The position numbers were made by a program, and so were the translations under genes. 58,450 nt of DNA from Chara braunii. Its lineage: Eukaryota > Plantae > Charophyceae. The number at the start of each line of letters is the position of its first letter. The first letter of the stretch is position 1. Below the pieces are notes generated by a model. It saw only the letters and a program-made list of their open reading frames with translations, made no database searches and had not been told where the DNA came from. This document shows, one piece after another, positions 23,331 through 52,800 of the stretch. The stretch is from assembly GCA_003427395.1 (NCBI GenBank), contig BFEA01000006.1, positions 7,504,213 through 7,562,662 on the forward strand. Reading direction: 5' to 3'.

Positions 23331-23506
23331 GACCTGTATGTAGCTGAGTGAGATTACTGCTTAGTTTGAGTTTTAGTTTGATAGGTAGTTGCTTTAGCTG
23401 CTCGCCACGTGCTAGAGTGATAGGAGTTAGTTTCAATTCCTGCATTTTCTGAGCTAAGTTTTTTTTACTTAGGTCGATTTCTGCATTTTCTGGGATCATT
23501 TGTTAT

Positions 23507-24351: not shown

Positions 24352-24864
24352 CTAAGTGGCAAATCCGGATATCCGGCATATCAATTTTATCCGGAATTTC
24401 CAATCCGGATAAAAATTCCGGATTATTTCCGGATATGGAAAATCCAGCCCTGCGCAAAATATTTTTTTTTTTACAAAAAAAAACAATTCAAAAAAATCTG
24501 GAAAACAATTATGTTGTTCATATCAATGATATGAATAACTTTTGGCTTGATGCCATCTTTGATTACTCAACAAATATGAAGATAAAAAAAGAACAAGAAA
24601 ATAATATTTAGATAAAAAATCATAGAATGAATTAAGCATCCCCCCTTTAAACCCCTTTATTCCCTATCTTATCCCCTTTGAACCCTTACAGGCCCTATCA
24701 AGCTTTTCATGTAATAGAAACATAGTTCTATTGTATTTTGCCTGCGCAATATCATTTTTTTATATTTTTTTTTTTTTTTTTTTTAAGTTTTTTTTTTTAA
24801 ATCATTCGAATTTTCGGATGATCCTACCCCCCGATCATCCGGCCAGATAACCCATGCTACCTAG
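24352..24864. mobile_element. hAT-type MITE nested in LTR B
   Basis: Absent from A/C/D at this site; 8-bp TSD ctattatc/ttattatc (empty site in C is ctgttatc); TIRs CTAAGTGGCA and CTAGGTAGCA (8/10); subterminal atccgg repeats. Confidence 0.85.
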
Positions 24865-25909
24865 TTATTATCACTAATAAGACGTCGGTTGGTTGATCGC
24901 CGACATGTTGGCTCACGTCACAACTTTGCTTACACCTGTACCTCAACTTGATTGCCTTAGCCCTGCGATTTGATATGTTTCTTTGAGGGTTTTAACCGGA
25001 CTTGTTTTAATGGTCATTGTAAATAACTTATGAGATTTATGGAAAGTTGGGCTATGACTGCGGCTTGAGTGTGTGAGGCGTGGTGTGAGTTATAGGGAAC
25101 AACAAAGTATACCACATTGGTGTATGACAATGTGGCGTTCGTCTGTGTCTGTGTTTTATACAGGTTAGTGTCTTGGAGCCTATGTACAAGTCTTACTTTG
25201 GAGGCAGTGAGAATGACAACCATGTGTCGCACGATCTGCATACCTGATGGGTTTATGTTTCCCCCTTTGTTTTTTTTTATCCCGAGTTCTGATTTGATAT
25301 ATGAGTACTGGGATGTTTATTTATTTATTGAGTGATTTTGCTTATTAACTTTTATGGTTGGACGTTGTAGTCTGTGGCAACCGTCAAAGTCAAACCCTTT
25401 GACTTCTCTCCAGGCCCTGGATGATAGAGTTGGTATCCAAGACAATAAGATACGATTGCCACCAGAGGTATGAACCTGTGTACCACCCACTCTCTGCAGG
25501 GTGTAAAAGAGGGTGTGGCTCTCAACCTCACTTAGCGGTTGTCTAGCGTCATGAGATTAACCCCTCAAGGTGCATGTCAGTCGACACTTGAGTGTCGAAT
25601 GCAACCCTCGAGATTAGTGAGGATCGCATGAGTATGGGTACTACATAGTACGTCTTCATTACGACTGCTTGCGTGTACATGTATTGCGAGTCGATATAAG
25701 AAGACCCTGCGTCCGCGCGGTTTTATACTAAGTGTCGCACGCGACGCTTATCCGATTTCTGCATCGGAGAGTTATGAGATGGCTACCAGGGGACTAGGAG
25801 TGTTGTAGCGCTTGTTTGTTCTGTGTCGTTTTGTGTATGTGTATGTGTGCGTGCTTTTATTTTTAGGTTCCTTGGAGTGGTGTACGTGTGGTGTGTGGGA
25901 TACGTCCTG

Positions 25910-26169
25910 CCGTCTTAACCCGAAAACAAGGTACGTACCTTATATTCAAGTTACCTCCGAAAAACGGGTTCCGAGAAATCGGCGCTAAATTTTCGAATAT
26001 AAGGTATCCTCGAATACAAGGTACGTACCTTGTATTCGAATATAAGGTACGTACCTTGTATTCAAATAGAAGGTACGTACCTTGTATTCGAATATAAGGT
26101 ACGTACCTTGTATTCAAATACAAGGTACGTACCTTATATTCGAGGTATGCCTCTCTCTCTCTCACTCTC

Positions 26170-26202
<33 letters not shown>

Positions 26203-26343
26203 NNNNNNNNNNNNNNNNNNNNNNNNNNNNNNNNNNNNNNNNNNNNNNNNNNNNNNNNNNNNNNNNNNNNNNNNNNNNNNNNNNNNNNNNNNNNNNNNNN
26301 NNNNNNNNNNNNNNNNNNNNNNNNNNNNNNNNNNNNNNNNNNN

Positions 26344-26384
<41 letters not shown>

Positions 26385-26430
26385 CGTGCGCTGTTCACGC
26401 ATGCGACTGCTTCCACACGCGGGCGCTATG

Positions 26431-26464
<34 letters not shown>

Positions 26465-26490
26465 CATTGGTTGTTCACACGGTCGCTATG

Positions 26491-26548
<58 letters not shown>

Positions 26549-27057
26549 CGTGTTTGGAAAGAGAGGAATGCGTGCGGGATCGTTAGCGCCGAGGCAAGAT
26601 TTTCTTCTCCAAGCACTTTTCACGATCACGCGAAGTCCAAGAACAAGTACGCGACCATGAGAAGGCACCTGCAAGAAAAGGTACATATAATGTTTTTGAA
26701 AAAGTTCAAGAAGTTTTTGTATGACGTACGTACCTACTTCTTGGAGTTGTGTGTAGACGGTCCTGGTTCTGGACATATCTTCCGCAGAGATGCATAGCAG
26801 CAGATCAATNGAGATGCTTTGCACCTCTCCCCAAAGGCATTCGGATTCAGGCACCAAATTTGATGCTGAAACGACATATAGGGACCTTGCCCGACAATCC
26901 TACACAAAAGCAAAGAAAATGAGGAAGGGTTCCCTCTTATTTCTTTATTACTAATATTTACTTTATATTTTTTTATTTTTTTTCTCCCTCACTTTAGGAA
27001 AGTTGCACCCTAAAATTCGTTCTACAAGGTACGTACCTTGTTTTCGGGTTAGGACGG
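25910..27057. mobile_element. Tc1/mariner-type non-autonomous element nested in LTR B
   Basis: 32-bp TIR ccgtcYtaacccgaaaacaaggtacgtacctt; inserted at the TA of gtccTAgtcgac seen in C/D (flanks TG/TA); internal tandem 26-bp palindromes; N-gap 26203-26343. Confidence 0.88.
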
Positions 27058-27477
27058 TAGTCGACTGATGATGAGTCGCGCTTGGGACCTCAGCCCCCCT
27101 AAGGCATCGGTTCGCGTGCGGGTCTGATAGAGGGGTAAAACCGCGCATACCCCCTGTGCTACAGCGAACGAGAAACACCCTCGGTTGGTCCACCTTTGCG
27201 ATTGCAACTGATTAGCTTTCGTATTGTGGACCTAAAGCTCGACGGGGATACGCCCAGCGAAGGGAGGTGACAACTCCCGTAAGGTGGAGGTAAGGCGTGC
27301 CTCGCGTGGGCCCATCCTTTCGTAGGGGCTCGCGAGAGGTATTGCTAATGCACTCGGCCTAAGCGACTTGCGGAAACTCCATGTGCATATCACGACGAGG
27401 AATAAAGCAACTCCTGTGTGACGTGGCTGGGAGGGTCCCGCCCTGTTTTGTGCGGTGCCTGATCGATGCGCTCGACA

Positions 27478-30057: not shown

Positions 30058-33000
30058 CTCGCAAACTCCTGTTTTTTCTACAGCCATGCCCGACCCATAT
30101 TGGACCTCCATAATATTTGGCAATCGTAGCCATCCAAAACTGCTGTTTAAAAATCCCCACAACCTGACCCAGCCGCAGCTGCTGCGCCTAATTTGAGCGT
30201 ACAAACCTGGGCCTACCCACACTGTCGGTGCGAATACCCTTACAAGGGTATCCGCCGTGGTTTTTGCAAATGCCAGAAAATAAGTTAGATGAAAGTTTGA
30301 GCATGTGATGCGAGTCGGGGCAGTGTCTGTAAATTACGTTGATTGGATGATTGACTAGGATAAAAAGTGTGTGGGTGCGCGGGTTTGAGGCGCGCGTGAT
30401 CTTTTATTTTTGGTTGATGATTGTGAAAGTCGGCGTAATTGCCGACCAGATTTTATTTCCTCTGATTAAACAGGGATTAAAAAGATTTTATCTTGTTGAT
30501 TGATGTGCTTGCTTGTGACGCATGCGCACGTGAGGAGAACGACATCGACAACAAGGAGGCTTTGAAGTGTTTTTGGTAGACCGGTGCGTTGCGCGGTGTC
30601 CGTTTGTTTAGGCGTTCGCTGGAGTTAGACCCAGACTTGGGCCTAACACTATTAATTACGGTGTCAGACTTCTATCTGAGATTTAGGGATCGAGGTCGAG
30701 CGGCAGCAACGCAGGAATATCAGAATAGCGCGAAGGGACTGAGGGGTTGAGGGCCCGACGGGGCTATCCCCCTTGGTTTTGCCATCGGCAACGTTAGGAG
30801 GGTGCTAACATTTTCACTCTCCTCGAATTCGTATATTCTGACGTCCGTATTATTATTTATCCTTGCTCCAGCGTCCCGTTGACTTGGACGCAACGCCGAA
30901 CTTAGTGGTCGTCATGGTAATCAGGGGACCTTGAGTATGCACTTCTTTCGACGGGTCGTTCGGGTTCAGAGTGTTTGTGATGTCGGCAAGATACCTGTGC
31001 CTTGCATATCTTGGGACGCGAACTAAGGAGCTCAACGTGCATACGAGCCAGTGAGCGGATTAGCCGTGGGGGGAGTCCGCGGTGGAGGGGTTGGGTGTGA
31101 TTATACCCACGGGACTTTCCTCCGCTTCGGTCCTCAAGGTTCTCATTTGAATAATTGCCACTACCACAAAGACCTGCGTCGGGCCATTTCACATAGGTGG
31201 GGCTTCACGGCTTGTTATGAGAGGCCTGAGTGGGACTTACCTGTTGCAGGGCCGAAGGGGTGGCGGGCCCAGCTTGGAGGAAAGAGGGAAAGAAAAATAG
31301 GAGTGTCGAAGTAGCGAGCGCAGAGGAGAGGGGGAACGGGTCGGACGCCCGTCAGTGTGAAGCGCGGCGGGGCGGGGTAGACAAACACAACAGTGCTAGT
31401 GAGTAGGAGCGACAGGCAGTGAGGCTGGTCGGGCGGCGCTGTGCAGCAGCGAGGCGGAACGCTGAGACAGGGCCGACGGGCGGGCCACTGTGGGGCGCTG
31501 TCGAGGCGAGAAAGGACGAATGAACCTGACGGGGTTTTGCGCTTGGTACGAAGGAAGTCGGGGATGGTGAGAAACGAAGCCCGAGAGGGAGAACGGGCCC
31601 TTGCGACTACTAGGGCGCTGCGCTATTAGCAGTAGGCGGGACAAGCAGTGAAGTGACGGGGAAAGGTGAGTGATGAAAACGATGGAGTGAACCCGGCGCC
31701 GATTCTCGCCAGGTACATTTTGAGTGGTGATGGCGGAAGATTAGTCAGGCGCAACCATAGTTGTCCTATTTACTCGATTCTTTGAGGAATCAGGCGGGTA
31801 AAGAGGCGAGTCTGGGGCTTTGAGGGCGGGTGAACACGACCGTGAAAGCGGATTAGGAAGAAAGTTTGTAACATAAGAGTGAGATAGAGAAAGGGGTGCG
31901 CCGGGATATGGCGGAGAGGGAGGAAGATGGGAGTGAAAACTTTGAATCTCGCTCGATCCTCGACGGATTCGAGCGGGGTAAGTTGCGAACTTGGGGTTCT
32001 CGCACCGGGCGACTTGCATAACGGGGTTAGGTTTGGAGGTAGGTTAGAAAGATAGATGATAGAGAAGAAAGAGTGTGCACGGATATGGCCGGAGGGAGCG
32101 GAGAAGCAAAGGGGTGGGAGTAGCACAACTCGCTCGTTTCTAAACGAAAACGAGCGAGTAAAGGTTCAATTTCTGGGTTTTTGGATAGGGCGAGTTTGAT
32201 GGTAATATTAGTTTTGGGGTTAGTTGAGTAGAATTAGTATTAGCTGAGGGAGACATTGCGAGGAGAATGGCGGGAGAGTGAGAAGGAGAGGTTGCATGTC
32301 AATTGAGAAGCTTGGGTGAAGAGAGGATGTAGATGAGGGGATTCAAGATCGGGCGAGCTAACTGGTGAAGGAAGATTAGGAGTTGGAGTGAGTAAACTTG
32401 AAGTACGAAGTGGAGTGGTCTGCGGGGTTGCGAGCTACGTGAAAAAAGGGGGGGGGGGCACTTCGGACTGGTAATATATTTGTCCGTGTTGTAGTGGAAG
32501 ATTCATTCGATTTTGCCCGTAGTTGCAGCGGGAGGCTGGCCGAAAAGTTGGAGACTTACCTGTGAATTGATGCGTGGCCCAACCTTGTGATGGAAGTAGA
32601 ACCTCTCTATCTCATTTTCGTGCATGCATCTAGTTGGTTTTATTGGAAGAATCATCCAGGTTTGGCTGGTTTTGCCATCAGAGGCAGCGCGGGGCTAACA
32701 GCGGGGTTGGACAGTCGTAAGGTCGGGGACTTACAAGTGGGCAGGTGCATGCTAAACAGAGGAAGGAGGAGTGGTCATACCTGGCCCTGCGAAGGTCTGA
32801 TTACGACGGCGATATAACAAGTGATTGGTACATGAATGTATCTTTCCACATTCTAGTGGAAGATACAGTCCAACTTCACTTTTTCTAATCAGCCGAAGTA
32901 GCCTCCGGCCAGCTGCGGGGCCGGAGTCATACTTGTTGGCCGACGCACACCTTCGGGAGAGTCAGTCGGCTTTGCCCAAATCGAAACAGCTCTGCTCCAC

Positions 33001-34074
33001 TCGTCCACAGGGAAGGCAGCGAGAGGCGGGCCATACATGGCAGGCTTGCCTGCTGACTGAAGTAGCGGGCGACCGAAGCTTGAGCCACGCTATCATGACC
33101 AGCGCCGGTACGCACTTCGTTTGATTCTGCTGGTTGCGACGGTCGGCTACGGTCAACTACAGGCTACCACAGATCTGTTGATGACTGCACTACTTCTGCT
33201 CACTATTACACTAAGCTTATTGTTGTGCCATCTTCATTTGCTGCGTATTCGTGTTAGTGGCCACAGCCGGTTTTTTAGTACACCCGACCGTTGCTCGATC
33301 AGCCGGGGTCGCGCTGCTACCTCACTGCGGGGAGGGAGAATACTATTTTTTTGACCCACAGGCCGTGTCTTCAGCCGCGGCCAGCGCATTTCGGGCCACG
33401 AAGCTCTGGGGAATGACGGCGTCTTGTTGAGGGGATAGATGATGCAGTTGTGGAAGGACGTCAAGGAATTCAGTACCGCGAATCGGAGAATCGTCAGAGT
33501 GTTGACTTCGGCAGGTTGGCTTCAGTTTGACCAGACTACGGCGCACTTTTGCTATCATTGCGGGGCCCTCAGGCAAATCCAGGAATCAAGGCCCTCTCGC
33601 GCGAGTCTGAGAGCACCCTTCGTGGATCTGAGAGTCTCAAACCTACCTCATTCTGTCCTTCTCATTCTAAGTCTAGTCCTGATCTGAGAGGAAGGCGACA
33701 GGCGGGATTGCGACCCGTAGGACCGCAATAAGACTCTATGGGGAGTCATCCCACCGATTGAGGGAGCTCTGCCGGAACTTAGGAGGAGTTTTGGAGGCAG
33801 AGAACTGAAAGGTAACCATTGCTTCCCCTCTAAAAACCCAGATTATAGCCTTATCTGTACTACCTATTGTGTTTTGACTGAGTATGTTGCATGTATCCTA
33901 CTTTGACTTTTTGACTTTCATGATAAAACCAGATTAAGTAAAGGAATGTGAGAAGAATTTCAGTTTCAGTTTTGTTGATTGTATGAAAGCAGATTGTAAA
34001 AAGGGAATGCATCTGGGGGAAGGATTAGAGAAAGGAAGGTTTTGCGTGAGGGTTGACTGGGTCAATCGAGACTG

Positions 34075-34940
34075 GGAAGTCCCCATAAGTTTGGGGAGAT
34101 TCAGTGCTATGTTTATTTTGGATTGTGTGGAGCATCAGACTATTTTATAAGTTTAGGTGGTCTGATTGCTCTGAAGGTTGGGAAGTCCCCATAAGTTTAG
34201 GGAGACCTAGTACTGTGGATTTGCATTGAGAATCAGATCATTCTATAAGTTTAGGTGATCTAGTTGCTCTGACTTGTGAAGGCTAATTGTGGTTGATTTT
34301 TCAGGGACCAAGTGCATTATGTAAGTTCAGGTGCCTTGGTTGCCTTGTTTATTTTGGGTTTTCCTCTGTTTATTTGGTTCTGAACGAGGGGTTCTGAGCC
34401 ATTCGATAAGTTTAGGTAGCTCAGTCTCTTCCTGTTTTATTCTGGGGAAATGAACTTGACAGAGGGCAGACCATTCTATAAGTTTAGGTGGTCTAGCCCA
34501 ATGCCACGCACAGGCAGAGAGCCAGACTGTTCTGTAAGTTCAAGTGGGCTGACTCAAAGTCTCGCACATGTTGGAACCCAAGGGTTATAATTTGACTATA
34601 TTCTATTACTATTTTTACCTATGAACAGGCTAGTCAGGGTCCCATAAGTTTGGGTGGCCTGACTATAGCATATCACAAACTGAAGAGATTATTAATTAAT
34701 AGTATAACTGAGGGTAACTTGAGTCGGCTGAGCATTGTTTCTAAGATGAATGAATCAGCCATACACTCACTTTGAAGATTAAGTTCAAAGAGGTATATAC
34801 AACTTGGCTATTTAAACAGTTCAGAGCGACTAGAACGACCTAGTCATGTGCCCAAAAGAAAAGAAAAATAGTTGTGCCCTCTGTTCTGTGTATACTTAAT
34901 GGCTGGGTCAGCATGTCCCATAAGCTTGGGTGACCTGACT
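34075..34940 (+). other. Short-hairpin array in LTR C (~11 units, core YATAAGTTTRGGTGG)
   Basis: Examples: atcagac...gtctgat, ctgagc...gctcag, tagtcagg...cctgacta, accaag...cttggt; one A-type unit at ~34732. Confidence 0.85.
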
Positions 34941-35224
34941 CTACGCCTTATGTAAGCTGGGTATAAAGGGATAAATCATTGAAAGACTATGAATTATTGT
35001 TTGCTAAGTTGACTTTGGGGATCGTGAAAGTACTTACCATTGTGGTATGACCTGCATGTGGCTAAGTGAGACCTCTACTTAGTCTAAGTTTCAGTTTGAC
35101 AGGTAGTTGCTTTAGTTGCTCGCCACGTGCTAGAGCGATAGGAGTTAGTTCAATTTCTGCATTTTTTAAGCTAACTTTATTTTTATTTAGGTCAATTTTT
35201 GCATTTTCTGTGATCTTTTGTCAT

Positions 35225-35545
35225 ACTTGGCTTTGTATAAATTTTGGTAACTACTTTCTCTACGGGAAGCGCTGCCGAAATTTTTGCAAATCCAAGGAGT
35301 TGGTCATATTTTGACTTTTCAAAGTTCAACTTGTCTAAAGTTTATATATGGCTTAGTAAAAATCTGGAAAGTCTCATTTTCTAAAAGGAGTGCTGCCCAA
35401 ATTTTTGCTAATTCAGAGAGTTAGACAAAATTGGACTCTGAAAAGTTGAAAACTATTTCTGTTTTCATATTCGGGCTGGTATAAATTTTGGAAAGACACT
35501 TTTCCTACGGGAAGCGCTGCCGAATTTTTCTTAGTTTAAAGGAGA
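35225..35545 (+). repeat. ~120-bp long-hairpin array in LTR C (3 units)
   Basis: Same units as in A/B/D, one dimer shorter. Confidence 0.9.
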
Positions 35546-38189
35546 TAGGTTATATTTTGACAGGTGACAATTCTGGCGATCCACCCAGTGTAGGGGTGCT
35601 TATGCCAATATCTACCTTTGCTTTGGGCACTGCTTAGCGGTAGATTCAGGCTTAGTCAATTAGGATGATTTGAGTGAGATCGAGATATGGAGATTATTCT
35701 CTATGGACTTATAGATTTAGCCTTGGGGATTGGCATGTCATGTGCTACAGGTCCTCTTGATCGATTGATTCAGGATTTGAGTTAGATTCAGCTTGATCCT
35801 ACGAGGATCATCTTCTGTTATCACTGATAACAGGTCGGTTGCCGATTCGTCGGTTCACGATTCAACTTCAATCCACTCTTGTCACTCAACCTAAAGGTTT
35901 TAGCCCTGTATTGTGTTTTTACCCGGACTTTATTGAATGACCATTTAACAAAGATACTGAGTATTTTATTGCTGGGAGGGTGCGTTAAGGTTGAGGTTTG
36001 TATGACTAAAGCAAAGGGTATGAGGGCAGAGAATGGTTAAAGTTGACCCTGTGTAGTGAGTTGACTTTTGTTGGATCTTTGATGTAATTGCACGTGTGTT
36101 TGTGGTTCGGAATTTGGATATGGCTGTCTATGATCACATATATATGGTTGAGAGGAGTCTCACTGTGACTGTGAAAAGTGATCGTCCTATATTAATGATC
36201 CTTATTCATATATATATATATACATATATATATATACATATATATATATATATTTATGGCTTGGGTGTTTCGTGCAACTTACTGTGACCATGCGTAAAGG
36301 TTAAACAAATTATATTCTTGAGAGAAAAGGGAGATCCCCTTTTATCCCTTTGCTTTTTAGAATTTCTATGGTTGGACGTTATAGTACGTGGCAGCCGTGA
36401 AAGTCAAACCCCTTGACTTCTCCCCAGGCCCTAGATGATGGAGTTGGTCTCCATGGCAATAAGAGACGATTGCCACCACAGGTATGAATCTGTGTACCAC
36501 CCACTCCCCGCAGGGTGCAGAAGAGGGTGTGGTTCTCAACCGCATTTGGCGGTTGTTCAGCTTCGAGAGATTAACCCTCAAGGCGAGTGTTAGCCGACAC
36601 TTGAGTGTCAAATGCGACCCTCGAGACTAACGAGGACCGCATGATTATGGACACTACATAGTACGCCATCCTCGCGACTGCTTGCGCATTCATGCATTGC
36701 GAGTCGATATGAGCTAGCCCTGCGTCCGTGCGGTTTTATACTAAGTCTCGCGCGCGACGCCTATCCGATTTGCGCATCGGAAAGTTATGGGATGACCAGT
36801 AAGGGACTAGGAGTGTTGTCGCGTTGTATGATGTGTGTGTGCGTGTGCGTTTTGTTTTGTGTTCGTTGAGTGGTGTGCGCGTGGTGAGTGGGCTACATCC
36901 TAGTCGACCGACGACAAATCACGCTCGGGATCCTAGCCTCCCAAGTGCATCGGCTCGCGTGCGGGCCCGATAGAGGCATACTACCGCGCGCACCTCCTAT
37001 GCTATAGCGAACGAGAAACGCCCTCGGCTGGCCTACCTCTGCGATTGCACCTGATTGGCTTTCGTATTGTGGACTGGTAGCTCGGCGAGCATACGCCCAT
37101 CGAAGGGAGGTGACAACTCTCGTAAGGTGGAGGTAAGTCGTACCTCTCGTACGCCCTATCCTGTCGTAGGGGCTCGCGAGAGGTATGGATGACGCACTCG
37201 GCCGGAGAGGCTTGTGGAAGCTGCATGTATACTCACGACGAAGGGCTAAAACCTACTTCTGCGTGACGCGGCTGGGAGGGTCCCGTGCTGCCTCGTGCGG
37301 TGCCGGACCGATGCGCTCGACAGCGCCCAGGCCTTTTAAAAAGAGTTGCAACCAGACCTTCCCAGACCTAGACATTAGTTTCATCACATACCCCCGCCCA
37401 GACCTTCAAACATAATCCCACCATCAGAGGGAGAGAGAGAGAGAGAGAGAGGGAATGCAGCAGGGGCAACCTCGGGGCTGTACGGTACCGCCTCTGAGCC
37501 GAGTACCGGTTCCCCTTCGTGCTTCTCCTGTTTCATGGCAGCATAATCGTAAAAAAAAAAAAAAAAAAAAAAAGTAACAAAGAAATAGCGTGGGCATGGT
37601 ATCGCTCTGTCCGTAAGAGATAAACAGCAAGGTCCTCCCATCTATCGATAAATACTCCATACTACAACTTCATTCCTTGCCTTAGTGATGTCAAGATGAC
37701 TCGGTCCATGGTCCCTTCCCTTCTGCTCTTCCCGTGCCTTAGATGACCTAGCTAGCAAAGAGATCCCTCCGCTAAATCTTGTGCCTTAGATCACCTAGCT
37801 AGCAAAGAGATCCCTCCGCTAAATCCTTCAGTTGTCACTTGGTGCATACATGAGGCAGTACATAGTCAATCTGGTCCGCTATATCTGCCAGAATCTTCGA
37901 CTGTCACCTTGTGCACACATCAGGTAATATCTAGTAAATCTGTTTCGCTATTTCTGCCCAGATCCTAGCGTGTACATCAGGTAATATCCAATGAATCTGG
38001 TCCGCTATTCCTGCCAGATCCTTTTCTTCTCCGTGACGAAGTGCATGTAAGCTCCCCTCCCATTCTTCAAAGCCAATGTGAATTCACGGAAATACTCTAC
38101 CTTTCCCGTAAAATGAAACAATAAAATAAACGCCTGTAATAGCCACTCTATCGTTTACCAAACCACCTCGCTCTCCTCTTTCCTCTGAT

Positions 38190-38325
<136 letters not shown>

Positions 38326-40237
38326 ACTTTGTCGATCTCCATGCTGTGTCTAGTTATCCACTGTTCCTAGCATGAGTTGTTTCGTTCCAAGACCACCACA
38401 GTTTTTTGTTTGTTGTTTCCTTGCTTTTGGTTATGGTTTGCACCCATGAATCTTTTCTCAGGAGGGCAGTGGTTTTGAAAAAAAAAAAGAAAAAAAAGGG
38501 GATTGGATGAAACGCTTGAATCGAGGTGTGTTTGTGGAGAGGTGCAGAAACGGATACCGATGCCTTTCCGCATGTCAGCCTAAAACACATCCACATTCAG
38601 CCTCTTAATTCAATCTTTGCTAGTGGGACTTTGCCCTAGAGGATGGTCATGTATGGGCGAACTTGACGTGGGGGAGGACGAGAAGAGGTGGAAGTCGAGG
38701 ACGATGACAGGGACAAGGTGAGGATAGAGAAGGAAGAGGAGAGGCGGGGGTGGTTAGGAGGGCGAATGCACCTCAGTTCTCGGCGTTCTCACGACTGCCA
38801 GTGACGAGCAGCAACACCTGCCTTCTCACGACTGCTCGTGTTGCACACTGTGTATAATGCGACATGCAGCGATGTGCAGTGCACAACGTCGAAGAGCATC
38901 GAGCCAAGCGGGTAGCTACCACCGTTTTCCCTCCAGCATAAGGGACCCTAATAATAAATGTGTGCAAGTTGTGTTTACGACCACAAGCAGAACACAATGA
39001 AACCTCATAATGAATGTATGCAAGGTATGTTTCCGGCCACGAACAACCATAATAAGGGTCCGTTGTGTTGGGGAGAAGACAGTGGCAGCCCATGGGACGC
39101 TGGGAGCCAAACTCGACACACTTCAAATATTTTCCACAACGACGCTGTCGAGCGCATCGGTCTGGCACTGCACAGGGCAACGCGGGACCCTCCCGACCAC
39201 GTCACGCAGAAGTCGGTCTAAATCCTCGTCGCTAATATACATGGAGCTTCCGAAAGCCGCTCCGGCCGAGTGCGCCAGCCATACCTCTCGCGAGCCCCTA
39301 CTACAAGATAGGGTCTACGCGAGGCACGACTTACCTCCACCTTACGGGAGTTGTCACCTCCCTTCGGTGGACGTATCCCCGCCGAGCTACCAGTCCACAA
39401 TACGAAAGATGATCAGTTGCAATCGCAGAGGTGGACCAACCGAGGGCGTTTCTCGTTCGCTGTAGCATAGGGGGTACGCGCGGTATTACGCCTCTATCAG
39501 ACCCGCACGCGAACCGACATCTTGGGGGGATGAGGTCCCAAGCGCGACTCGTCGCCGGTCGACTAGGACGCATCCCACACACCACGTGCACGCCACTCTA
39601 AAGAACATAAAAATAAAAACACACACACATACATATACACGAAACGACACAGAACAAACAACGCGACAACACTCCTAGTCCCTTAGTAGTCATCCCATAA
39701 CTCTCCGATGCGGAAATCGGATAGGCGTCACGCGCGAGACTTAGTATAAAATCACGAGGACGCAGACCATACTCATCTTGACTAGCAGTGCAATCATCCG
39801 CAAGCAGTTGCAATGATGACGTACTATGTAGTGCCCATAATCAAGCGGTCTCTCATGGATCTGAGTACCGCTTATGACACTCAAGTGTCACACTCGAAGT
39901 ATCTTGAAGGCTTGCCCCTTCAGGATATTGAACGGCTGAAGGAATAGTCGTGAGGCCTCCGCGGCACCTCCGACCTTTAGGCTGGGTGTCCCAGTAGGCA
40001 CGACAAATAGCCTCTACACGAGGGGAGATTCCTTCCATGCAGAGTCCAGGGTCTGGGATGTCATAGACAAGGACCTCGAATCTCGACCCAGTACTAACGT
40101 CCGACTAAGAAATCTTTTAAGAAACATTCAGCAATAAAACGGAGTTTCTTTCTCTTTTCTCAACCCCAATTCCGATCTCACCTCTAAGCGTAGACCCCTC
40201 AGGCCACGCGACTATCCTGCATAGGTACACATACAAA

Positions 40238-40282
<45 letters not shown>

Positions 40283-40284
<2 letters not shown>

Positions 40285-40399
40285 TCACAAACAGAACTGC
40301 CCGGTAAAACCGTAGGCAGAGAGAGAGAAGAGGACAACAAACGAGGCGCTGTGACAAACTGCGCTCGTTTGTTGTCCTCTTCTCTTTCTCTGCCTACGG

Positions 40400-40404
<5 letters not shown>
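40283..40404. mobile_element. Small foldback insertion within (TA)n
   Basis: 40-bp arms 40306-40345 and 40364-40403 are complementary with one mismatch; the equivalent site in C (36208-36255) is plain (TA)n. Confidence 0.7.
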
Positions 40405-40446
<42 letters not shown>

Positions 40447-41114
40447 ATACGTATGTGACGATCACTTCTCACAGTCACAGTGGGTCTCCTCATAACTATA
40501 TATATATGTTTGTGATCGCAGGCAATCAAATCCGAATTCGAACAACCATACATACCTGCAATCACATCAAAGAGTCAAACAAAAGTCAACGTACTTCACG
40601 GAGTCAACTTCAATTAACCTCTACACTCATACCCCTCGCCTTAGCCATGGAAGCCCCAGCCTCCTGTCCAGTCAGCCATAATTAAATACTCAGTACCTTT
40701 GTTAAATTACCATTCAATAAAAGTCCGGGTGAAACCTTAATAAAACAATAAAACCACCAGGGCTCAAGTCTTTCAGGTTGAGTATTGAGGATGCATTAAA
40801 GTTGAGTCGTAAACCGACGAATCGGCAACCGACCTGTTATCAGTGATAATAGAAGGTGATCCTAGGATCAAACTGAATCTAGCCGAAATCTTGAACCAGT
40901 CGATCAAGAGGACCTGTAACACATGACCGACCAATCCCCCAGACCAAATCTATAAGTCCATGGAGAATAATCCTCATATCACGATCTCACTCAAATCATC
41001 GTAATTAACTAAGCCTAAGCCTATCTTTAAGCAAGTGCCAAAAGAAAGGTAGACCCTGGCAGAATCTTCTCTATACAGAGTGGATTTTTCAGAATTGTCA
41101 CCTGGCAAATATAA

Positions 41115-41685
41115 TCTAACTCCTCTAAACTAAGAAAATTTCGGCAGCGCTTCCTGTAGGAAAAGTGCTTTCGCAGAATTTATATTAGCCTAAATATGAA
41201 AACAAAAATAAGCTTCAACCTTCTAAAGTCAAATTTTGTCTAACTCCCTAAATTAGCAAAAATTTGGGCAGCACTCCCTTTCGACAGGGAGACTTCCCAA
41301 ACTTATACCAAGTCAGATATTAACTCAGGAAACAAGACCCGAGTTCAACCAAGACAAAATTTAATTAACTCTTTAGATTTGTAGAAATTTCGGCAGCGCG
41401 TCGCGTAGAGAAAATGTTATTCCAAAATTTATACAAAGCTAAATTCAGAATCTAAAGTGACTTCGAATTTTTAAAATATAATTTTGTCTAACTTCTTGAA
41501 TTAGCAAAAAATTGGGCAGCACTCCCTTCAAAAAAGGGGGTGTTCCAGATTTTTACTAAGCCAAATAGTCAGAAAAGTTACACCTAAAAAAGACAAAGGC
41601 TGACTAACTCCTTGGTTTTGTAGAAATTTTGGTAGCGCTTCCCGTAGAGAAAGTGGCTTACCATGATTTATACAAGGCCAAGTAT
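41115..41685 (-). repeat. ~120-bp long-hairpin array in LTR D (5 units)
   Basis: Reverse complement of the A/B/C units. Confidence 0.9.
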
Positions 41686-41967
41686 AACAAAAGATCCCAG
41701 AAAATGCAGAAATTGACCTAAGTAAAATAAACTTAGCTCATAAACTGCAGGAATTTAAACTAACTCCTATGGCTCTAGCACGTGGCGAACAAATAACGCA
41801 ACTACCTATCAAACCGAAACTCGGACTAAGTAGTGGCCTCACTCAGTCACATGCAGGCCAAACCACAAAGGTAAGTACTCTCACCATCCCCAAAGTTATT
41901 TTAACAAACAATAATTCATAATCTTTCAATGATTTACCCCTTTATACCCAGCTTACATAAGGCGTAA

Positions 41968-42695
41968 AGCTAGACCACCCAAACTTATGAAACACGTCTA
42001 GCTCAGTCATGGAGTATACACAAACACAGGGCACAATAACTTTTCTCTTCTTTGAGCATATGACTATGCCACCCTAGTTGCCCTTAAGTGTTTACATATC
42101 CCAACTTTATATAATTATCTGCACTTAGTCTTTTGCGGTAGCATATAGCTGAACCGATCATCTTTAGCTCAAGATCAAGTCTGCCCCTTCGTACCACAAG
42201 TTTACTCTTAATTAATACTCTCTTCAATTTGTGATAAGCTATAGTCAGACCACCCAAACTTATGAAATTTTTTCTGACTAGCGTGTTCATAGACAATATA
42301 ATAGTAAAGTATAGCCAAATTATAACCTTCTGGTTCGACCATATGCGAGGCGTTGGACCAAGACCACCCAAACTTATGGAATATGTCTTGGTTCTCAGTC
42401 GGGTTCATTTTTCTCAAAGCCAAAGCAGGAAGAGGCTGAGCCACCCAAACTTATGGAACATGCTCAGACCTCCTCGTTAAGGAACTAAAGAAACTGACAA
42501 CAACCCAAAGTAAACAAGGCGACCAAGCCACCCAAACTTATGAAACATGCTTGGTCTCTGAAAAATCATTCACATTCAGCCCTCACAAGTCAGAGCAACC
42601 AGACCACCCAAAGTTATGGAACATGTCTGGTTCTCCAGGCAATCCAAAAATAAACCTAGTACTGGGCCCTCCAAACTTATGAAGACTCTCCCAGC
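41968..42695 (-). other. Short-hairpin array in LTR D (7 clear units, + strand core CACCCAAACTTATG)
   Basis: Perfect unit-specific stems: agctagac/gtctagct, tagtcaga/tctgacta, accaagac/gtcttggt, ctgagc/gctcag, gaccaagc/gcttggtc, aaccagac/gtctggtt, ctggg/cccag. Confidence 0.9.
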
Positions 42696-44029
42696 CTTTG
42701 GTTAACTCAGTCAAACGTGCAATACTGCCTTCCTCCCACCTTTCTCCGAGATGCAATGCCACAATCTGCTTTCAGTCAAACAATAAAAACTCAAACCGAA
42801 TTTGCACAATCATTCCTTTATTAAGTCTGGTTTGTCCTGAAAGTCAAACTCAAATTGAAATAGGGGGTGCAAGCAATATATTCAGTCAAACATAGCAATG
42901 AATACAAGTACAGGCTATACTGGGTTTATAGAACGAAGGCAATAGTTACCTTTCAATTCCCTGCCTCCAGAACTCCAACTGAGTTCTGGCAGCGCTCCCG
43001 CAATCGATGGGATGACTCCCCACAGAGCCTTGTTACGGTCCTACGGGTTGCTGTCCCGCCTGCCGCCTTCCTCTCTGAACAGGATTAGACTGAGAGTAAA
43101 AAGGATAGAAGTAAGGGGTTTCGCGCTCGAGATACAAGAGAGGGAGTGACTCAACTCGCAGGAGAGGGCCTTGATACCTTCATGCGCATGAGGGCCCCGC
43201 AATAATGGCCAACATGAATGGTAACTTGGTCAACTGACGCTGAACTATCAGTTGTTTGACTTTCCGACCCTTCTCCCATTCGCAGCAAAACCTCCTCCTA
43301 CAACCTCAGCCCCTTTTCAACGTTCGAGGTCTGAAAAGCACTGGCCGCTGCCCGAGATATGAGTCGAGGACCAAAAACGCAGCCCTCTCCCTCCTCGTAG
43401 TGAAGGAGAGCGTGACCTAGCCGGCCGTGCAATGGCGAAGTGTATGCAGATATCGGATGTGCAGTCCTCACCAAACCTTTACAAGCACCTCTGCTCACAG
43501 CCAGACCTCGCCGCCTCCCTCGGTAGGATAACGGCGTATCGTTCAGCAAGCGAGTTTTCAAACCCCGCCGTTCGCTCCTCACCACTCAGTATGTCGAAAT
43601 GTGCAGCATACCGGCTAAACAGGTAAGTCCGCCTCGCTTCTCTGTGCGGCAGCATGGGTAGTGCACTGGCAAATAGTCAGACCTGTACCTCCGTGGTAAG
43701 CCTATTGCTGCGCAGGCTGATGGATAGAGCGACACAATTGTCAATATCCAGACCTACAGCCTTTGCAGCTGGTCTGTTGCATTTTCATTTGTCGATCTGA
43801 GGTCTCCCTCCCAGCGGCTCACCTTCCCGCGGTCCCACGACAGGATGAGCACAGCGTGGATTAGCAGATAAACTTTTGGTTCTCGCCCTATCTCTTCACT
43901 ACCTCAACCACCGGGAGTGGGCAGCTACTTCAACTGGTAGGTAAGTCGCCAATTCCGCAACTTGCCCTTTCGTTCGAATCTACCATCTAACAGGTAAGGG
44001 CAGCAGGTAAGTTCGTAACTTCATTGTTC

Positions 44030-44185
44030 CAGGTAAGCCCGTAAATTCACAGTTCCAGCAGTGCAGCGGGCAACAGGTAAGCCCGTAACTTCACAGTTCC
44101 AGCAGTGCAGCGGGCAGCAGGTAAGCCCGTAACTTCACAGTTCCAGCAGTGCAGCGGGCAGCAGGTAAGCCCGTAACTTCACAGT
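44030..44185 (+). repeat. 44-bp tandem repeat x3.5, each unit containing CAG|GTAAG
   Basis: Unit starts at 44030, 44074, 44118 and 44162. Confidence 0.95.
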
Positions 44186-47100
44186 TTCTCTCCCGCTTCT
44201 AACTTCTCCTTTCTGCTAATCCCCTTCCTCGCCCGTGTACGGTGGATAGTTGGTCCCGATTGTGGTTGCAGTCCGAAGATGGCAGACACAAAGTGGACTT
44301 TGACGTCCGTTACGAGTGTTCGATACGACGACCAATCGATAGCAATACAACCGTCGTTTGACTTTGAGGAGGCGATTATTAGCAACACGTCAAGTTGAGG
44401 AGACGATTATTAGCAACGGCCACGACTTTAGCCATGGCTATAGACCTCACATCGTCCCTCAGGTTACGAAATATGCAAAATAAGAGTGAATCTTCCGCTA
44501 AAACACGAAATTATACACTTATTTTTTCTGCACGCTGCCCCCACGGTAGTACGCTCCGCAACAGCTATACCATTTCATGACTCGAGGATCCAAGCTTACC
44601 ATTTCCCTCATACTGTGTAAAAAAAAAAAAAAAAAAATCTTCGAAATGCCATCTCCCTCGCTGGAGTTCGTCAAGAACCGAGCGAGGCTTCACCTCCTTC
44701 GTGTGGCCATATCCTCCCTCCAAATACTTTTGCGCACTGCTTTCCCTACTGACCTCCAACTTGATTAACTTAGCCTTAAATCTAACCTCATCATTCGATT
44801 CACTCGACTCTAGAACCCCTACTTTACATTTTGGTTTGCTCGATTCCACTAAGGATCGAGTATACTACGCAAATTTTTATTCCACTATATCCACTACTTC
44901 GGTTATCTCTACGGAACTTTTATGACTACTAACTCTATTTCTACTAACTCTCTACTACTTTCGACTGCGAAATCAGGGTCGCAAGGGCCAAACCCCCCCG
45001 ACTCGAGTCCTCCCTCGCCCGAAACCGGTCAGAAACGAGAGAGTTACACTTCTTTCCATTCCCCTTCTCCTTCACCTTCGCCATCTCCGCGCACCCCCTT
45101 TTTCTTCTAACCTCCCTTCCTATTGACTCTCCACTAAAACAGATGTTAGATTCGGTTTCGCCTTACCCCAAAACCTCTACTTACCATCTCCCCTTGCCTG
45201 ATTCCACTAAGGAACGGGCGGGCTACATAATCTTCACTCCCGCCATGCCTACTCCCTCCGCCACTACGCTCCTCTTTGCCGTGCATGTATTCGGCGCGCT
45301 TTCCGGTTCAGATTCATCCACCTTCTCTGCAGCCCCGCTTCAATGCCTTAACGCCCATCGCTCCACTGCCTTGCCTCGCCCGATGCTGCTAACACTATGC
45401 CCAACTATCTCAGTGGTCAGGACCTATCACTCGACAGCCCAGTCACTCCATTCGTGTACTCACCTCGTCTTCACATTCGCTCGCCTTGCTTCTCTATATG
45501 TATCCAGCGCGGCTCCCTGTCTTGGTTCATTCCCCTCTTGCCGCATTCGTTCCCTGCCCCACCCGTTCGAATCTTCGAGTGGGCTCGGCGCAGCTCCTCA
45601 TGTGGATCAGCCTCTGCTCTCTGGTGCTCCGCTCTCCCCTGCCTTTCGTCGCTGCGCTCAGAGTTACTACTGTGTAACGAACTGCCCACAAACTACAGGC
45701 AGTGCTAAATTACGTGATGGCCCAGATAGCGGACAGTGGCCATAGAAGTCGAAATCCGCCAAGGGGTTGGTAACAGCTCACCGATGGGCCCGGTCTACCC
45801 CCAGAAGACAGCGTTGCAGCACCCGGCATGTACTCGGCTGCGACAACTCCAACGTTGTACCGAGTAGGAGGACGCGGGCCCGATGCTAAGCCAGCAGCGT
45901 GAGCCCGGCTAATGCGGTTCGCGGTGCAGGTCTTGGTGATAGTAGGGAAATTATTCAAATCAGAACTTTGGAGGCCGAGGAAGGAAGGGGTTCCATGAAA
46001 ACAACTGTCGGGATACCTTGCCGCACAACCAAATATTGCGGCAGTATCCCATGGGTGCTCAGGCATGTCCCGCCATCTCGTGTGACCCAGCGGGCATGCT
46101 CATACTCAAACCTCTCACACCAGATGGTGGGGAGCGGACGGTGCACCGCATCGGCAGGCCCTGCTACTCAGCCTTTTCTCCTGCACCGTGGGCCAACCCG
46201 AAAGGCGTGCACCCAAGGCCCTCGACCGCCATGTCGGCCATCCGTCCTCGGCAATACCGTACCGGAGCCAAGCGAGTTGGCCTCGAAACCGACCACTGAG
46301 TCAAAGTGATAAACATAGAAAAAATAGCAAATTAAGAGTAGGAATAATAATAATAATAAAAAAAAAAAATAATTAAAAAATAAAGATAATTCGAGGACCA
46401 CCACGCCCGGTTGCACCCCGCTGTTGACGTACCGTCGCGCCGCTCATCCAAGCAGGACTCAATTCTCACCCGCAAGTGCGCCATCAACTTCGGACGAGGC
46501 CGTACCGGCGTGACTTGCGAGAAGCACGCCAAATACCCTTGTAAGGGTATTTGGTACGACAGTCTTCCCGGACCTTATTAAGCGACGCCCCCGTCGCACC
46601 AAGCATTCCCTTTCAACTGTTGTTTTAAACATAGTCTCGAGAAAAATTATATAATATCCTCTCTCGAGTCGGTAACTTAACAAAAAACGATCATTAAGTT
46701 ATATCGACTCCAAGCCTCGATTTCTCAAGAAAGTGGACAAAATCATCGGTCAAAAATATCATTTAACTCCTGACAAAAATAGAGGTCTACAATAGCCGAA
46801 TAATCGGCTAGGCACAGACACGCTTCAACCTCTAATTTAACAAAGTGGATAAAACCACTTTTCACCCACTGCAATCACGAGCAGGAAGTCATCCAATGCC
46901 AAACTTAAGACTACACCACTTCCGGTCTCTTTGAACGATATTTTATCACGCCGGGCACACTGATCATCCTGCCACTAGAAAAAAACTCAATCCAGTGGTG
47001 GATTACAAAGATCATTTAGACTCAACTCAGTCATACATCCTTTTCAAGCTTTTCTCAAAGAAATATCCCATTGCGTGGAATAATCCGACACCTCAATCTC

Positions 47101-48707: not shown

Positions 48708-49784
48708 TCACCCCTTAACGTTTTCCCTTACCATCTTACATCTACGAGGGGTATGACCAGTCTTTCCGCAACAAGCACATACTATCTTTGTCTGTCGGTC
48801 TCGCATTATTTTCATTCTACGATCCGTCTTTCTTTCATATGACAATATATTCCATTGAGCACGTTCCTTTTGAGGACCGGATGTAGCAATATGTGGGGCC
48901 ATATCTACTTGCTTCTGTCCTCTTTGCCCTCCTTTTCTCTCCTTACTCGGGACGTCAATTGTCCTCTCACAGGTATGAGGCGCGACGTTTCTGACTTCAA
49001 CCTCCCCTGCTTCATTAATGCAGACCCTCGCCATATTCTCTTCATCCCACTTGTGATTTCGATTAAAGTTCTTAACCTTCTTCTGAGGCTCGCCTTCCGT
49101 ATTCCCTCTGACACCTGCCACAACTTCCTTTGTGCCTTCATCAAGCCTGCTCTTACCACAACTTTGCAACTCCTTTTTTTTCCTTGCTTCCCGCAGAGTA
49201 TGGCAGAGGTACTGGTCGAAATCCCTCTGTTTAAAGTTCTCTCGGATCTTATCTTATATTAGTCTCCCCTCTGTCCCACAAATCAAGTCGCGCTACTCGA
49301 TGTCCGTGAAGTTCATGAGGAAGACAAAACATTTGTCATGTTTAGACAATGCTCAGACCTTGCGTGATGCAAGCTCATACTCCGCCAGGAAGTGCCCTAC
49401 TGACACATAACAATATCGATTTATTTTTTCAAAATCGTTTTTGGTCAGTTGTTCCTTACCTAGCCGGTATTTATTCCACATGTCATCGTAAAACCTCCTC
49501 CATGACAACCCCACTCTTTTAATCAACCCCCTGACTTCATCCTTCAAACCTATATGGATATACTTTATCACCTCTTTCAGCATTTGCTCCTCATTCCATT
49601 TGCAGTGGGACGCTATCTGCTCAAACTTATCAAGGAAGTCAGAAACATGATAGCCCTTGAAAAAGTTGATCTCAACCTTGGGTATGTTGTCTCGCTCCCA
49701 ATCTCGCAGACCCAGCAGATAGGCAAGCTCCTCGACCCCAATCTTCCCTTTAGAGCCTTCCATCTCGAGCTCCCTCGACCCCAT
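48708..49784 (-). pseudogene. gag: Retrotransposon Gag (capsid + CCHC zinc knuckle), with stops and a frameshift
   Basis: MGSRELEMEG...IPKVEINFFKGYHVSDFLDKFEQIASHCKW...SWRRFYDDMWNKY...VGHFLAEYE; three in-frame stops from 49355 onward; C-terminal CACCGKTGHTPRRC fits CX2CX4HX4C. Confidence 0.85.
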
Positions 49785-49787
49785 CAC

Positions 49788-49815
49788 CTGTTGAAGAACA
49801 ATGAGCGACGTTAGG
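49788..49815 (-). promoter_or_regulatory. Candidate 3' splice site immediately before the gag ATG
   Basis: Minus strand reads cCTAACgtcgctcattgttcttcaaCAG|gtgATG: branch point, pyrimidine tract and AG. Confidence 0.55.
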
Positions 49816-52800
49816 GTCGAGGCTCGAAGGAATTTACATATCTTAGCCAAAAAGATAGAATATACCTCACTAAACCAACCCCGACACTTATCATGAAGGC
49901 GCACAAAAAAACCTATTTAGAACAATCGACGATACCGAAGAGAGTCCTTAAATAAATATCCACCTAGAATAAAACATAAGTAGTCGTTGATAAAACCTTC
50001 AAATTATAACTCAGACACTAACCACTTATAGTTTTTATTATCAAGGAACGACACAATATACATATGCCACACAGGTGGGTACTCCAAACATGAATCCAAA
50101 TACATCACAAACAACGATAAAAAACATGTACTGCTAACAATACTTCATGGCATGATAAACACCAATTATTTGCAAGGGTTGTAGCTGAAGAGCACAATAT
50201 GCTTTATAAACAACAATATAAACCCAACTGAACTGCTAGTCAAATAATATGATAAACAACCTCTTTCATATTTTATAGGGCAAAAATAAGACTAGCAATG
50301 AGTAAATAACATGATACAATTGTCAACCCTTTAATTCTTAAGCGAAGCATTTCATATAGAAGGGCGGTGTAATCCTTATGAGATAACATCTTGACTTTTG
50401 CGCCTCGCGCTAAAGATCAAGCCTCACTGCAACCCTCTCTGATTCCAGCGCTTGCACCTCACTGAACCTAATCATGGTCAGATGGACAACCCCAGTCATA
50501 CCTATTAAGGCAACGAATAGTGAATTCGCGCCCTTACAAATATGATGGCCGTGCTTAATGCGAGACGAGCCTAGGTCGCTGCTCCAGAACCGCTCTCACT
50601 AAGCAGTAGCTATTCCACTTGGCCATCACAGTTTCGGTAAGGTAACGAGCCCCTTCCTCTTCTCTCAACAGAAAATGTAGTTACTCTCCTATCATAGGAA
50701 AGGTAACAACACCCCACTAATGTACCAGGAACATAATTCCGACGTGGGTCTTACTATCATTCTTGAGACTAATAATTGTTTCCTTAAACCTTAACGAGGG
50801 AGTAGCAATTCAAGAATGCACTTCTACTGAGGATGACTATACATGCCGACTTACTCCCTTGAGCTACGTTGCATGGAGTACACGTACGGGGGCTTCCCGT
50901 ACGAAACGTACATGTTATTTCTGTACGGGAACTTGTACGTCTTCTANNNNNNNNNNNNNNNNNNNNNNNNNNNNNNNNNNNNNNNNNNNNNNNNNNNNNN
51001 NNNNNNNNNNNNNNNNNNNNNNNNNNNNNNNNNNNNNNNNNNNNNNNNNNNNNNNNNNNNNNNNNNNNNNNNNNNNNNNNNNNNNNNNNNNNNNNNNNNN
51101 NNNNNNNNNNNNNNNNNNNNNNNNNNNNNNNNNNNNNNNNNNNNNNNNNNNNNNNNNNNNNNNNNNNNNNNNNNNNNNNNNNNNNNNNNNNNNNNNNNNN
51201 NNNNNNNNNNNNNNNNNNNNNNNNNNNNNNNNNNNNNNNNNNNNNNNNNNNNNNNNNNNNNNNNNNNNNNNNNNNNNNNNNNNNNNNNNNTCCGTACTCG
51301 TACGAAGGTGCGTACAAGTGGCAACGTAGCCCTTGAGGAAGAACCACCTTCCCCAGGAATGAGTCATCCCATTCACCTCTGGTCCCATGCCAGATGTGGG
51401 TTTCATGCAAAGTTTATGTCCCCTCTAGAGACAATCCATGCATACGTCGTCAATCAGACATCAAACAAAATACAGAAAAACGCATATATGGCAATAACCA
51501 GATAAAAACCGTTATAAAAATAAATACATATATATATATATATAATATATACTATACATAAGCATAGCTAAGTAACCATTACTTCTCAAACTTTATCGCT
51601 AGTTACATCTATACAATCCCCTAGGTGACTCAATTTTATCGCCAACTGATACCACCGGAGGGTCAAGGCACAATGTTAATTGCACCAGGGTTGTCGAGCC
51701 CCGGCCCCGAGGGCCCGGCGGGGGTCCCGGGGGCCGGGGGTCGGCACCCCTGACCCCGACAAAAAAAGTAAAAAAAAAAAAAAAAAATCCAAAAAAAAAA
51801 ATAAAATAAAAAAAATACAGGGTGATGTGCAACCGCAGCCTGCACCCCCTGGGCCAAACTGCAATATTGCAGTTTTGGCCTGACCTCGGCCGCCCCCCAG
51901 GGCTACACCCCACCCTCGTGAGCCCGGGGTAGTGTGGGCGCGGTGTCGGAGGGCCCGACGTTCTGGTCCTCCTCGGTGTGTTAAATTTGCCACACCAGTC
52001 TGACGTTCTAACCTGCGGGGTAAGACGTACCCCACTAGTCCAATTTGAGGGAACCACGGTGTTGTCCGCTCTGCTGAATGGCAAGACGCTGCGCTGCGGG
52101 TTATCAAACTAATTAGCATGACTTTTCCGTAGTCAATCCTGCCGAGACCCTACCGCTGGATTCTATTTTTATTTCTATTATTATTATTTTATTATTATTA
52201 TCATTTTTTTTGCGAAGGGCTCGATTAGCCTCGACAGCAAATAAAATAAAAATAAATAATACTGCAAGAAAATAATGAGTCGGCCTAAGTGGTGGCGGTA
52301 CTCGCGTTGGCCAGGCCTAGGATCCAAACCGGAGGGTGCATGCCGAGACTGTATTTCTGCAGNCGGGCCTGGAAACCAGTTCCACCAGCGGGACTACCGG
52401 ACCTGGAATCAGCGTCAGCGGTAGTACCGCTGGGCCTGGTCTAATTAGGCAGAACCCTCCTCGGTTCCACGGGCACCGTACGAGTGTGCTCTAGTGCCAA
52501 GCGTCGACGAGCACAGCGGCCAGTTGTCGGCCCAAAGGGACTGCCATCTGGCGGTGACAAGAATGAATTTTATATATGCGTACGTCCCAAGTGTTGACGC
52601 GTGGGACTGTGCTTAGCCGTTACAGGACCTAGGGTTTTGACCTTTTTGCTCAGTTTTGAGACGCATGTAGGGCGACCAGCGAGAACTGGGCGCATAAAGG
52701 CGGGCGACTAGCATGAACGTAGCTCGCTGGTGCTGCCGTGGCTGTGGCAGCCATGAGTGTGCAAACACGGAGGGGCCAGCTCCACTGATCAGTCAATCAA

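Follow-up and report, generated by a model that had tools for sequence, protein, structure and literature searches.

Arrays of bulged hairpins with subfamily-specific tips in giant Ty3/gypsy LTRs of Chara braunii: a candidate protein-binding RNA module

Little is known about how the LTR retrotransposons of plants and algae export their RNA and how they select it over other RNA. The hairpins of HIV TAR, IRE, and MS2-type operators share a geometry of a stem, a U-rich bulge, a 3-4 bp stem, and a hexaloop, and act as one or a few copies. Sireviruses, which belong to Ty1/copia, are known for hairpin-forming units in their LTRs. In the excerpts of PMC4728375, the palindrome arrays of the maize Sireviruses Ji and Opie are described as family-specific symmetric units, predicted to form hairpins, in the cis region of the LTR. 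According to the portions of PMC5735166 used here, the targets of VANC are short, tandem-amplified, family-specific motifs of double-stranded DNA that evolve as a set; the words "hairpin" and "secondary structure" never occur in that paper. Among structured viral elements, HERV-K RcRE is a cis element in U3 that is present in RNA only via the 3' LTR (PMC6916052, in part), and Rev-type elements are presented as multivalent, partner-selective scaffolds with virus-specific partners (PMC10746203, likewise in part). In the sections of an LTR survey drawn on here, the NCGN target is confined to Phygy, the largest LTRs are of ~5 kb, and LTRs were limited to 6 kb (PMC6317226). A literature search, in which subscription papers were mostly not covered, found no published description of the element reported below; the Chara genome paper may describe these LTR families.

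The window, which is the whole stretch of 58,450 nucleotides of C. braunii analyzed here, was subjected to self-comparison and a terminus scan to define LTR units. The scan identified four related units that start with TGTCG, the complete ones of which finish with CGACA; in total, four TGTCG 5' ends and four CGACA 3' ends were found, as in the TG...CA termini of Ty3/gypsy LTRs.

39146..46561, minus strand: giant LTR D, 7,416 bp, TGTCG...CGACA, right flank GCGT, placed as the 3' LTR with respect to the gag region
30223..37322, plus strand: giant LTR C, 7,100 bp, solo, flanks ACAC/GCGC
19044..27477, plus strand: giant LTR B, 8,434 bp, solo, flanks ATGT/ACGT
24352-24867 and 25909-27057: later insertions in LTR B, both with terminal inverted repeats
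9994..16186, plus strand: LTR A; homology stops at 16186 and the 3' end was not found

The lengths of 7.1-8.4 kb, the termini, and the gypsy gag beside D bear out the claim of giant LTRs made in an earlier note on this DNA, albeit the intervals that the note gave as LTRs A-C turned out to be hairpin arrays and not LTRs. The right flanks are NCGN in 4/4 cases. For an expected target site duplication of 4-6 bp, the two flanks match at 3/4 bases in B and 2/4 in C, and the mismatches are CpG-type transitions. LTR B is embedded in an 81-bp satellite. A and D have a common upstream internal junction, at which the PPT check found no clear purine tract, and self-comparison detected no LTR pair within the window, which contains no 5' LTR-internal junction at which a PBS would lie.

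Altogether, the window is a eukaryotic repeat graveyard. An extra 3' end at 8292 delimits the 3' portion of a more distant LTR (~7100-8292), which was inserted at ACGT and has no clear array of the type described below, a single core-like match lying at 6926. A short hairpin is conserved at the extreme 5' end of all LTRs (46530-46561 on the minus strand, 9994-10025, 19044-19075, and 30223-30260; z ~-5 in D), and an old internal repeat of ~180-200 bp with ~60% identity occupies LTR positions ~1260-1960, in the 5' half, of A, C, and D. In LTR D, a MITE-like, hairpin-shaped insert lies between (TA)n runs at 40305-40460 and attracts heavy cross-mapping of both RNA and DNA. Satellites of 81 bp (27474-28747 and 18829-19043) and 68 bp (5427-6717) were found, and a separate gypsy-type coding fragment (28795-30052, minus strand) lies directly upstream of LTR C.

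The coding remnant associated with LTR D is as follows.

48711..49826, minus strand: broken gag of Ty3/gypsy type, bearing a CCHC-type knuckle and lying upstream of LTR D

Its open stretch at 49356-49763 matched proteins of Chara braunii solely (8 matches, 50-86% identity). A gag profile search recovered 162 related proteins, and 20 of the 25 long gag relatives scanned carried pol domains, namely protease, RT, RNase H, or integrase; those with several of them have the gypsy order. The termini, the NCGN flanks, and the pol domains of the gag relatives together identify the 7-8 kb units as Ty3/gypsy LTRs. Neither Pfam nor tblastn detected a pol remnant between gag and LTR D, and there was no Pfam match, and no Rev-like or VANC-like protein, among 14 ORFs and 12 read-through frames. 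The predicted fold of Gag was of low confidence (pLDDT 39.6). D probably belongs to a gag-only element, represented by one decayed copy; as such it resembles TR-GAG, described in the excerpts of PMC6022998 as gag without pol. The NCGN target is shared with Phygy. However, elements of Phygy are described as short and as having little DNA that is non-coding in the part of PMC6317226 used here, whereas the LTRs here are of 7.1-8.4 kb.

Each of the four LTRs carries a series of hairpins, termed array 1 here.

41964..42699, minus strand: array 1 in D, 7 units, core CA-UGU-UYCA-UAAGUU-UGGG-UG-G; loops at 42679, 42616, 42540, 42453, 42376, 42262, and 41987
42057-42083 and near 42140-42180, minus strand: a remnant and a degenerate unit, respectively, in array 1 of D
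13843..14467, plus strand: array 1 in A, 7 units, core CA-UUGU-UUC-YAAGYY-GAA-UG-R
22654..23330, plus strand: array 1 in B, 6 clear units, loop mostly UAAGAU, with a remnant at 23109-23151
34066..34944, plus strand: array 1 in C, 11 units, with a two-unit duplication near 34075-34270

The count of 7-11 motifs per LTR given earlier thus holds for A, C, and D but not for B, in which the right arm of the last unit has been removed by a deletion. Core-less remnants also occur in B, C, and D, and C retains one A-type unit (34722-34765). Loops are spaced 44-279 bp apart in A-D. The B/C/D-type core was matched 19 times against 0.66 expected and the A-type core 9 times against 0.21, both patterns being derived from the same units; except for the one at 6926, all of the core matches fall within arrays, and every one is on the element strand. 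A, most units of D, and two further copies introduced below (L002 and L004) all retain a C-A/U-G pair, with a U-rich bulge on the 5' side and a purine bulge on the 3' side. In 13 of the 15 units of A and L002, the first and last bases of the loop are alike (U..U or C..C), which suggests that a mismatched pair of pyrimidines closes a loop of four bases.

Five different perfect 8-bp basal stems in D, as well as the differences in upper stem among A-D, are as the earlier note described. On the other hand, its basal stem of 5-8 bp for every motif is too narrow a range, as Watson-Crick stems are of 1-6 bp in A, 2-8 in B, and 3-8 in C. We exchanged arms between units within one LTR and compared the basal pairing. 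Own arms paired over 7.3 bp and swapped arms over 3.4 bp in D (permutation p = 3.5e-4), and the corresponding values were 5.4 and 3.1 bp in C (0/20000 permutations), 4.8 and 3.0 bp in B (p = 0.006), and 3.7 and 2.6 bp in A (p = 0.018). Stems of at least 8 bp are found at ~0.4% of random positions in the window. Covariation was assessed in three alignments comprising 16, 20, and 17 of the 61 units, which came from 8 LTR copies of probably one genus. In the 16 A-type units, 88.5% of positions were paired against 81.7% after shuffling, with 23 double-change cells against 9.3; the 20 B/C/D-type units yielded 70.8% against 65.0% and 28 cells against 13.5, and the 17 units of L001, another further copy, 78.2% against 62.9% and 20 cells against 9.8 (0/500 shuffles for both measures in each set). 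The covariation score was also beyond all 500 shuffles in the three sets, and slid partners gave lower values of both percent paired and score. As the units are related to each other, these shuffles overstate significance and are not true probabilities. In none of the three alignments did the number of pairs or of pair types reach significance (24-293 of 500 shuffles). After six recently duplicated units were removed from L001, 24 Watson-Crick cells remained against 16.6 (p = 0.008). The claim that pairing is kept while the sequence changes therefore stands in all three unit sets.

A metagenome scan with the motif of a second array (see below) returned 8 loci, 4 of which are further LTR copies (L001, L002, L004, and L005); L003 and L006-L008 lack LTR homology and were dropped. 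A two-unit pattern search of metagenome contigs and a search of viral contigs with the array-2 motif gave 0 matches each. L002 is ~75% identical to A with the units in the same slots, but bears the loops TACTGT (four times), TACCGT, CATGGC (twice), and CATGGT, so that the loops are switched at all 7 shared positions. Between A and L002, 24/42 loop positions (57%) differ, as against 8/105 (8%) in the lower core, 22/84 in the basal stems, and 88/437 (20%) in the spacers (p = 7e-7 for the loops, and a further p = 0.002). The reverse was observed between D and C, in which 2/42 loop positions, 18/56 upper-stem positions, and 126/505 spacer positions differ. All 17 units of L001 have a 5-nt loop closed by A-U and C-G, beneath which the stem covaries freely, and the single unit of L004 stands between the A type and the D type. 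The hexaloop is accordingly not the shared part that it had been taken for, given the loops of L002 and the pentaloop of L001. In A-D, cores are more similar within an LTR than to the same slot of other LTRs (0.78 vs 0.63), while flanks show the opposite (0.46 vs 0.62). From these similarities and the loop and stem switches, the tip can be regarded as a subfamily barcode that changes array-wide, on scaffolds that are specific to the slot. A covariance model of the 16 A-type units weakly matched units of D, B, L001, L004, and L005 on the same strand (E 0.003-4), indicating that the units constitute one family; 3 of its 19 non-training matches fall outside array 1.

The spacers, described earlier as unrelated, are mutually related in A, C, L001, and L002 (0/200 shuffles each), and the p values of 0.09 for B and 0.31 for D indicate no clear kinship there; C and L001 also contain visible block duplications. 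This partial kinship shows that tandem duplication was the origin of the array. Hence the earlier argument against simple tandem duplication fails for the origin, but holds for the kept pairing and the concerted tips, which go beyond duplication. Two other readings were rejected: the spacers are orthologous between LTR copies, which does not suit a CRISPR-like array, and self-complementarity is seen in some loops only, which does not suit a kissing-loop role.

Array 1 is accompanied by other structured or conserved modules.

42950..43215, minus strand: region Z, conserved, GC-rich, predicted to be multi-branched, immediately 5' of array 1
13325-13595 in A, ~22166-22390 in B, and 33545-33810 in C: orthologues of region Z
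41128..41681, minus strand: array 2 in D, 5 long hairpins with a ~120-nt period and a conserved internal loop
14748-15300 in A, 23509-24065 in B, and 35226-35540 in C: array 2, with 5, 5, and 3 hairpins, respectively
40914..42949, minus strand: predicted intron of 2,036 nt, U-rich, spanning both arrays, proposed from splice-like sites
45723..46011, plus strand: degenerate fragment of eukaryotic LSU rRNA, antisense to LTR D

Near the arrays, no other part is as conserved or as well covered as region Z, which has no Rfam match; the fold of Z over four sequences has 61 pairs, 8 of which show a double change. It ends at a donor-like AG|GT, a site found in 4/5 copies covering it, and an acceptor-like site follows array 2 in 6/8 copies (A, B, C, D, L001, and L002; not L004 or L005). 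Array 2 is also present in L001, L002, L004, and L005, and its caps alternate between C(UACG)G, found in many hairpins, and C(UAAA)-like loops. The C(UACG)G tetraloop class is known from RNA. The same LSU region is found antisense to the LTR at 10512-10733 in A, 19746-20029 in B, and 31107-31177 in C; the best alignments of these antisense pieces have 63-84% identity, with E values as low as 2e-30. Sense LSU pieces lie at 10766-10894, 19549-19623, and 46057-46147, and the 5' end of 18S rRNA at 21386-21611 in B. An antisense ORF that seemed to be conserved among the 5' halves of the LTRs proved to be rRNA-derived sequence. As rRNA references, 19 viral loci were discarded as chance matches (13/19 scanned, 0 Rfam matches). 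A eukaryotic LSU motif was also present in bacterial and archaeal genome records (L028-L079); the four scanned contained eukaryotic rDNA, which is likely assembly contamination. Donor-like sites on the antisense strand are numerous in A and D (6 and 8; 43600-44200 and 41877 on the minus strand, 11280-12810, and 14552), and a spliced antisense transcript from the LTRs of A and D is possible.

Raw RNA reads of three runs (X5, X6, and X7) were mapped at 80% identity, and a cross-mapped rRNA spike at 46086-46147 indicated that first mates are opposite to the RNA. Over array 1, coverage in the two stranded libraries X5 and X7 was thin and biased to sense, with a sense depth of 0.1-4.5 against an antisense depth of 0-1.5 in X5, and 0-6.6 against 0-1.0 in X7, while antisense exceeded sense about twofold in X6 (55-72 vs 24-41). 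From the end of region Z into the array, the sense depth went from 49 to 2.4 in X5 and from 110 to 3.7 in X7, a 20-30-fold drop located at the donor-like site. In X6, both strands fell ~12-15-fold at the end of Z and recovered over the array, so that a part of the drop is due to mappability. Antisense RNA of X6 peaks at 41770-41886. The transcription check proposed in the earlier note thus found sense RNA over the array, weak and nearly all cross-mapped from other copies, as reads at least 99% alike amounted to 1/230, 36/4908, and 0/447. The mapped reads included no splice junction and no pile-up of starts or ends, and the 2,036-nt intron holding both arrays is a prediction. In the upper stems, 30 G-U oppositions were counted against 6 A-C ones; relative to a composition-matched null there was no G-U excess (23 G-U vs 11 A-C, 69.5% expected, p = 0.67). 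Both strands of D folded similarly above shuffles (z = -2.05 and -2.26). Altogether, action as RNA rather than DNA is weakly supported.

The earlier note recognized no described element in the array and proposed a search of Rfam, which gave 0 gathering hits and, among the 36 matches at E<=5, no overlap with any array 1. The units have the geometry of TAR, IRE, and MS2-type hairpins, but differ in the many copies and the lack of an Rfam match. Sirevirus arrays are alike in comprising multiple family-specific, hairpin-forming units in the LTR. Nevertheless, those are near-perfect GC-rich palindromes in LTRs of ~1.3 kb, as far as described in the excerpts of PMC4728375, whereas the Chara units are bulged hairpins with covarying stems and loops of 5-6 nt in 7-kb Ty3/gypsy LTRs accompanied by a gypsy gag. 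The likeness to VANC targets is a family-specific motif in tandem repeats, and the analogy drawn in the earlier note fits the family-wide switch of the motif; VANC targets, however, sit in VANDAL DNA transposons that encode VANC, while the present element has LTRs and no VANC-like gene among the frames scanned. The array also resembles RcRE and RRE as a multivalent scaffold and as a structured cis element in what would be U3. RcRE and RRE are each one branched domain with a dedicated Rev-like protein, in contrast to the many small hairpins with concerted turnover in Chara.

The array is real, looks selected, and has more specificity than the first description gave it; its LTR context is new. 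As for its function, we consider it about an even bet that array 1 gives unspliced genomic RNA a multivalent platform to which a subfamily-specific factor, likely Gag, would bind. Instead, the array may act at the DNA level, with sites that are specific to the family and that a transcription factor or an anti-silencing factor recognizes in double-stranded DNA or in extruded hairpins. RNA accommodates asymmetric bulges and G-U pairs better than DNA does, and double-stranded DNA could be recognized whether or not the variable basal stems pair, yet that pairing is kept. In favor of the DNA-level reading, a TATA-like GTATAA(A/G)G lies after the array in 5/8 copies (A, C, D, L004, and L005); against it, the site is absent from L001 and L002 and deleted in B. 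The strand tests were mixed, family-wide turnover of a motif in tandem repeats is how VANC targets behave in the portions of PMC5735166 used, and Sirevirus LTRs hold ~7.3 palindromes upstream of the TATA box in those of PMC4728375. On balance, we regard a DNA-level array as unlikely.

Slightly less expected is that the array is a neutral by-product of tandem duplication, stem-perfecting template switching, and short core-homogenizing conversion. The kinship of spacers and the block duplications agree with such an origin, one loop of D (TAACTT) is an inversion of the usual one, and template switching can create, repair, and maintain stems according to excerpts of PMC8794818. These processes nevertheless leave unexplained the invariant unpaired bulges and loops (2/42 differences in loops between D and C), the kept G-U pairs, the conversion limited to the tips, and the two other conserved structured modules beside the array. 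We hold it to be similarly improbable that the structure works without a specific protein, by helping reverse transcription across a 7-kb LTR or by blocking or decoying RNA silencing, with the tips turning over to escape small RNAs. The loops of A and L002 change three times faster than the spacers, antisense RNA covers the arrays in X6, and the palindrome regions of Sireviruses are siRNA hotspots in the part of PMC4728375 consulted. Escape from small RNAs would, however, favor diverse rather than uniform tips, the stems seem short for dicing, and the same loop is kept in D and C.

Thus, the multivalent protein-binding RNA module proposed in the earlier note is still the best reading of array 1, as a candidate only and without its premise of a conserved hexaloop. 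In the platform that we favor, array 1 would lie in U3 and hence near the 3' end of the genomic RNA, and the variable basal stems would serve as scaffolds presenting the tip of bulge, stem, and loop. Both arrays would be part of an intron that has to stay in the genomic RNA, and the platform would mark the unspliced RNA for export or packaging, as RcRE of HERV-K does from U3. A new tip may pass from unit to unit through short events of conversion or copy choice, and tips that match the factor would be kept by selection; the simplest candidate for this factor is the Gag that D retains. A bolder version, on which we place rather low confidence, is a code for self-recognition: each gag-only subfamily with giant LTRs would rewrite all of its RNA barcode hairpins at once, in step with Gag; the code would sit in an intron retained by genomic RNA only, so that competing subfamilies export and package their own RNA, and the antisense rRNA pieces would be a further RNA module.

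Concerted evolution in these arrays is confined to ~20 nt within a hairpin. Elements of this kind readily escape notice, as the LTRs exceed the 6-kb limit of a standard survey (PMC6317226, in the sections used). The arrays of the eight copies constitute a natural series of matched variants with the same scaffold and position but different tips, and the specificity between tip and Gag would therefore be directly testable by swaps.
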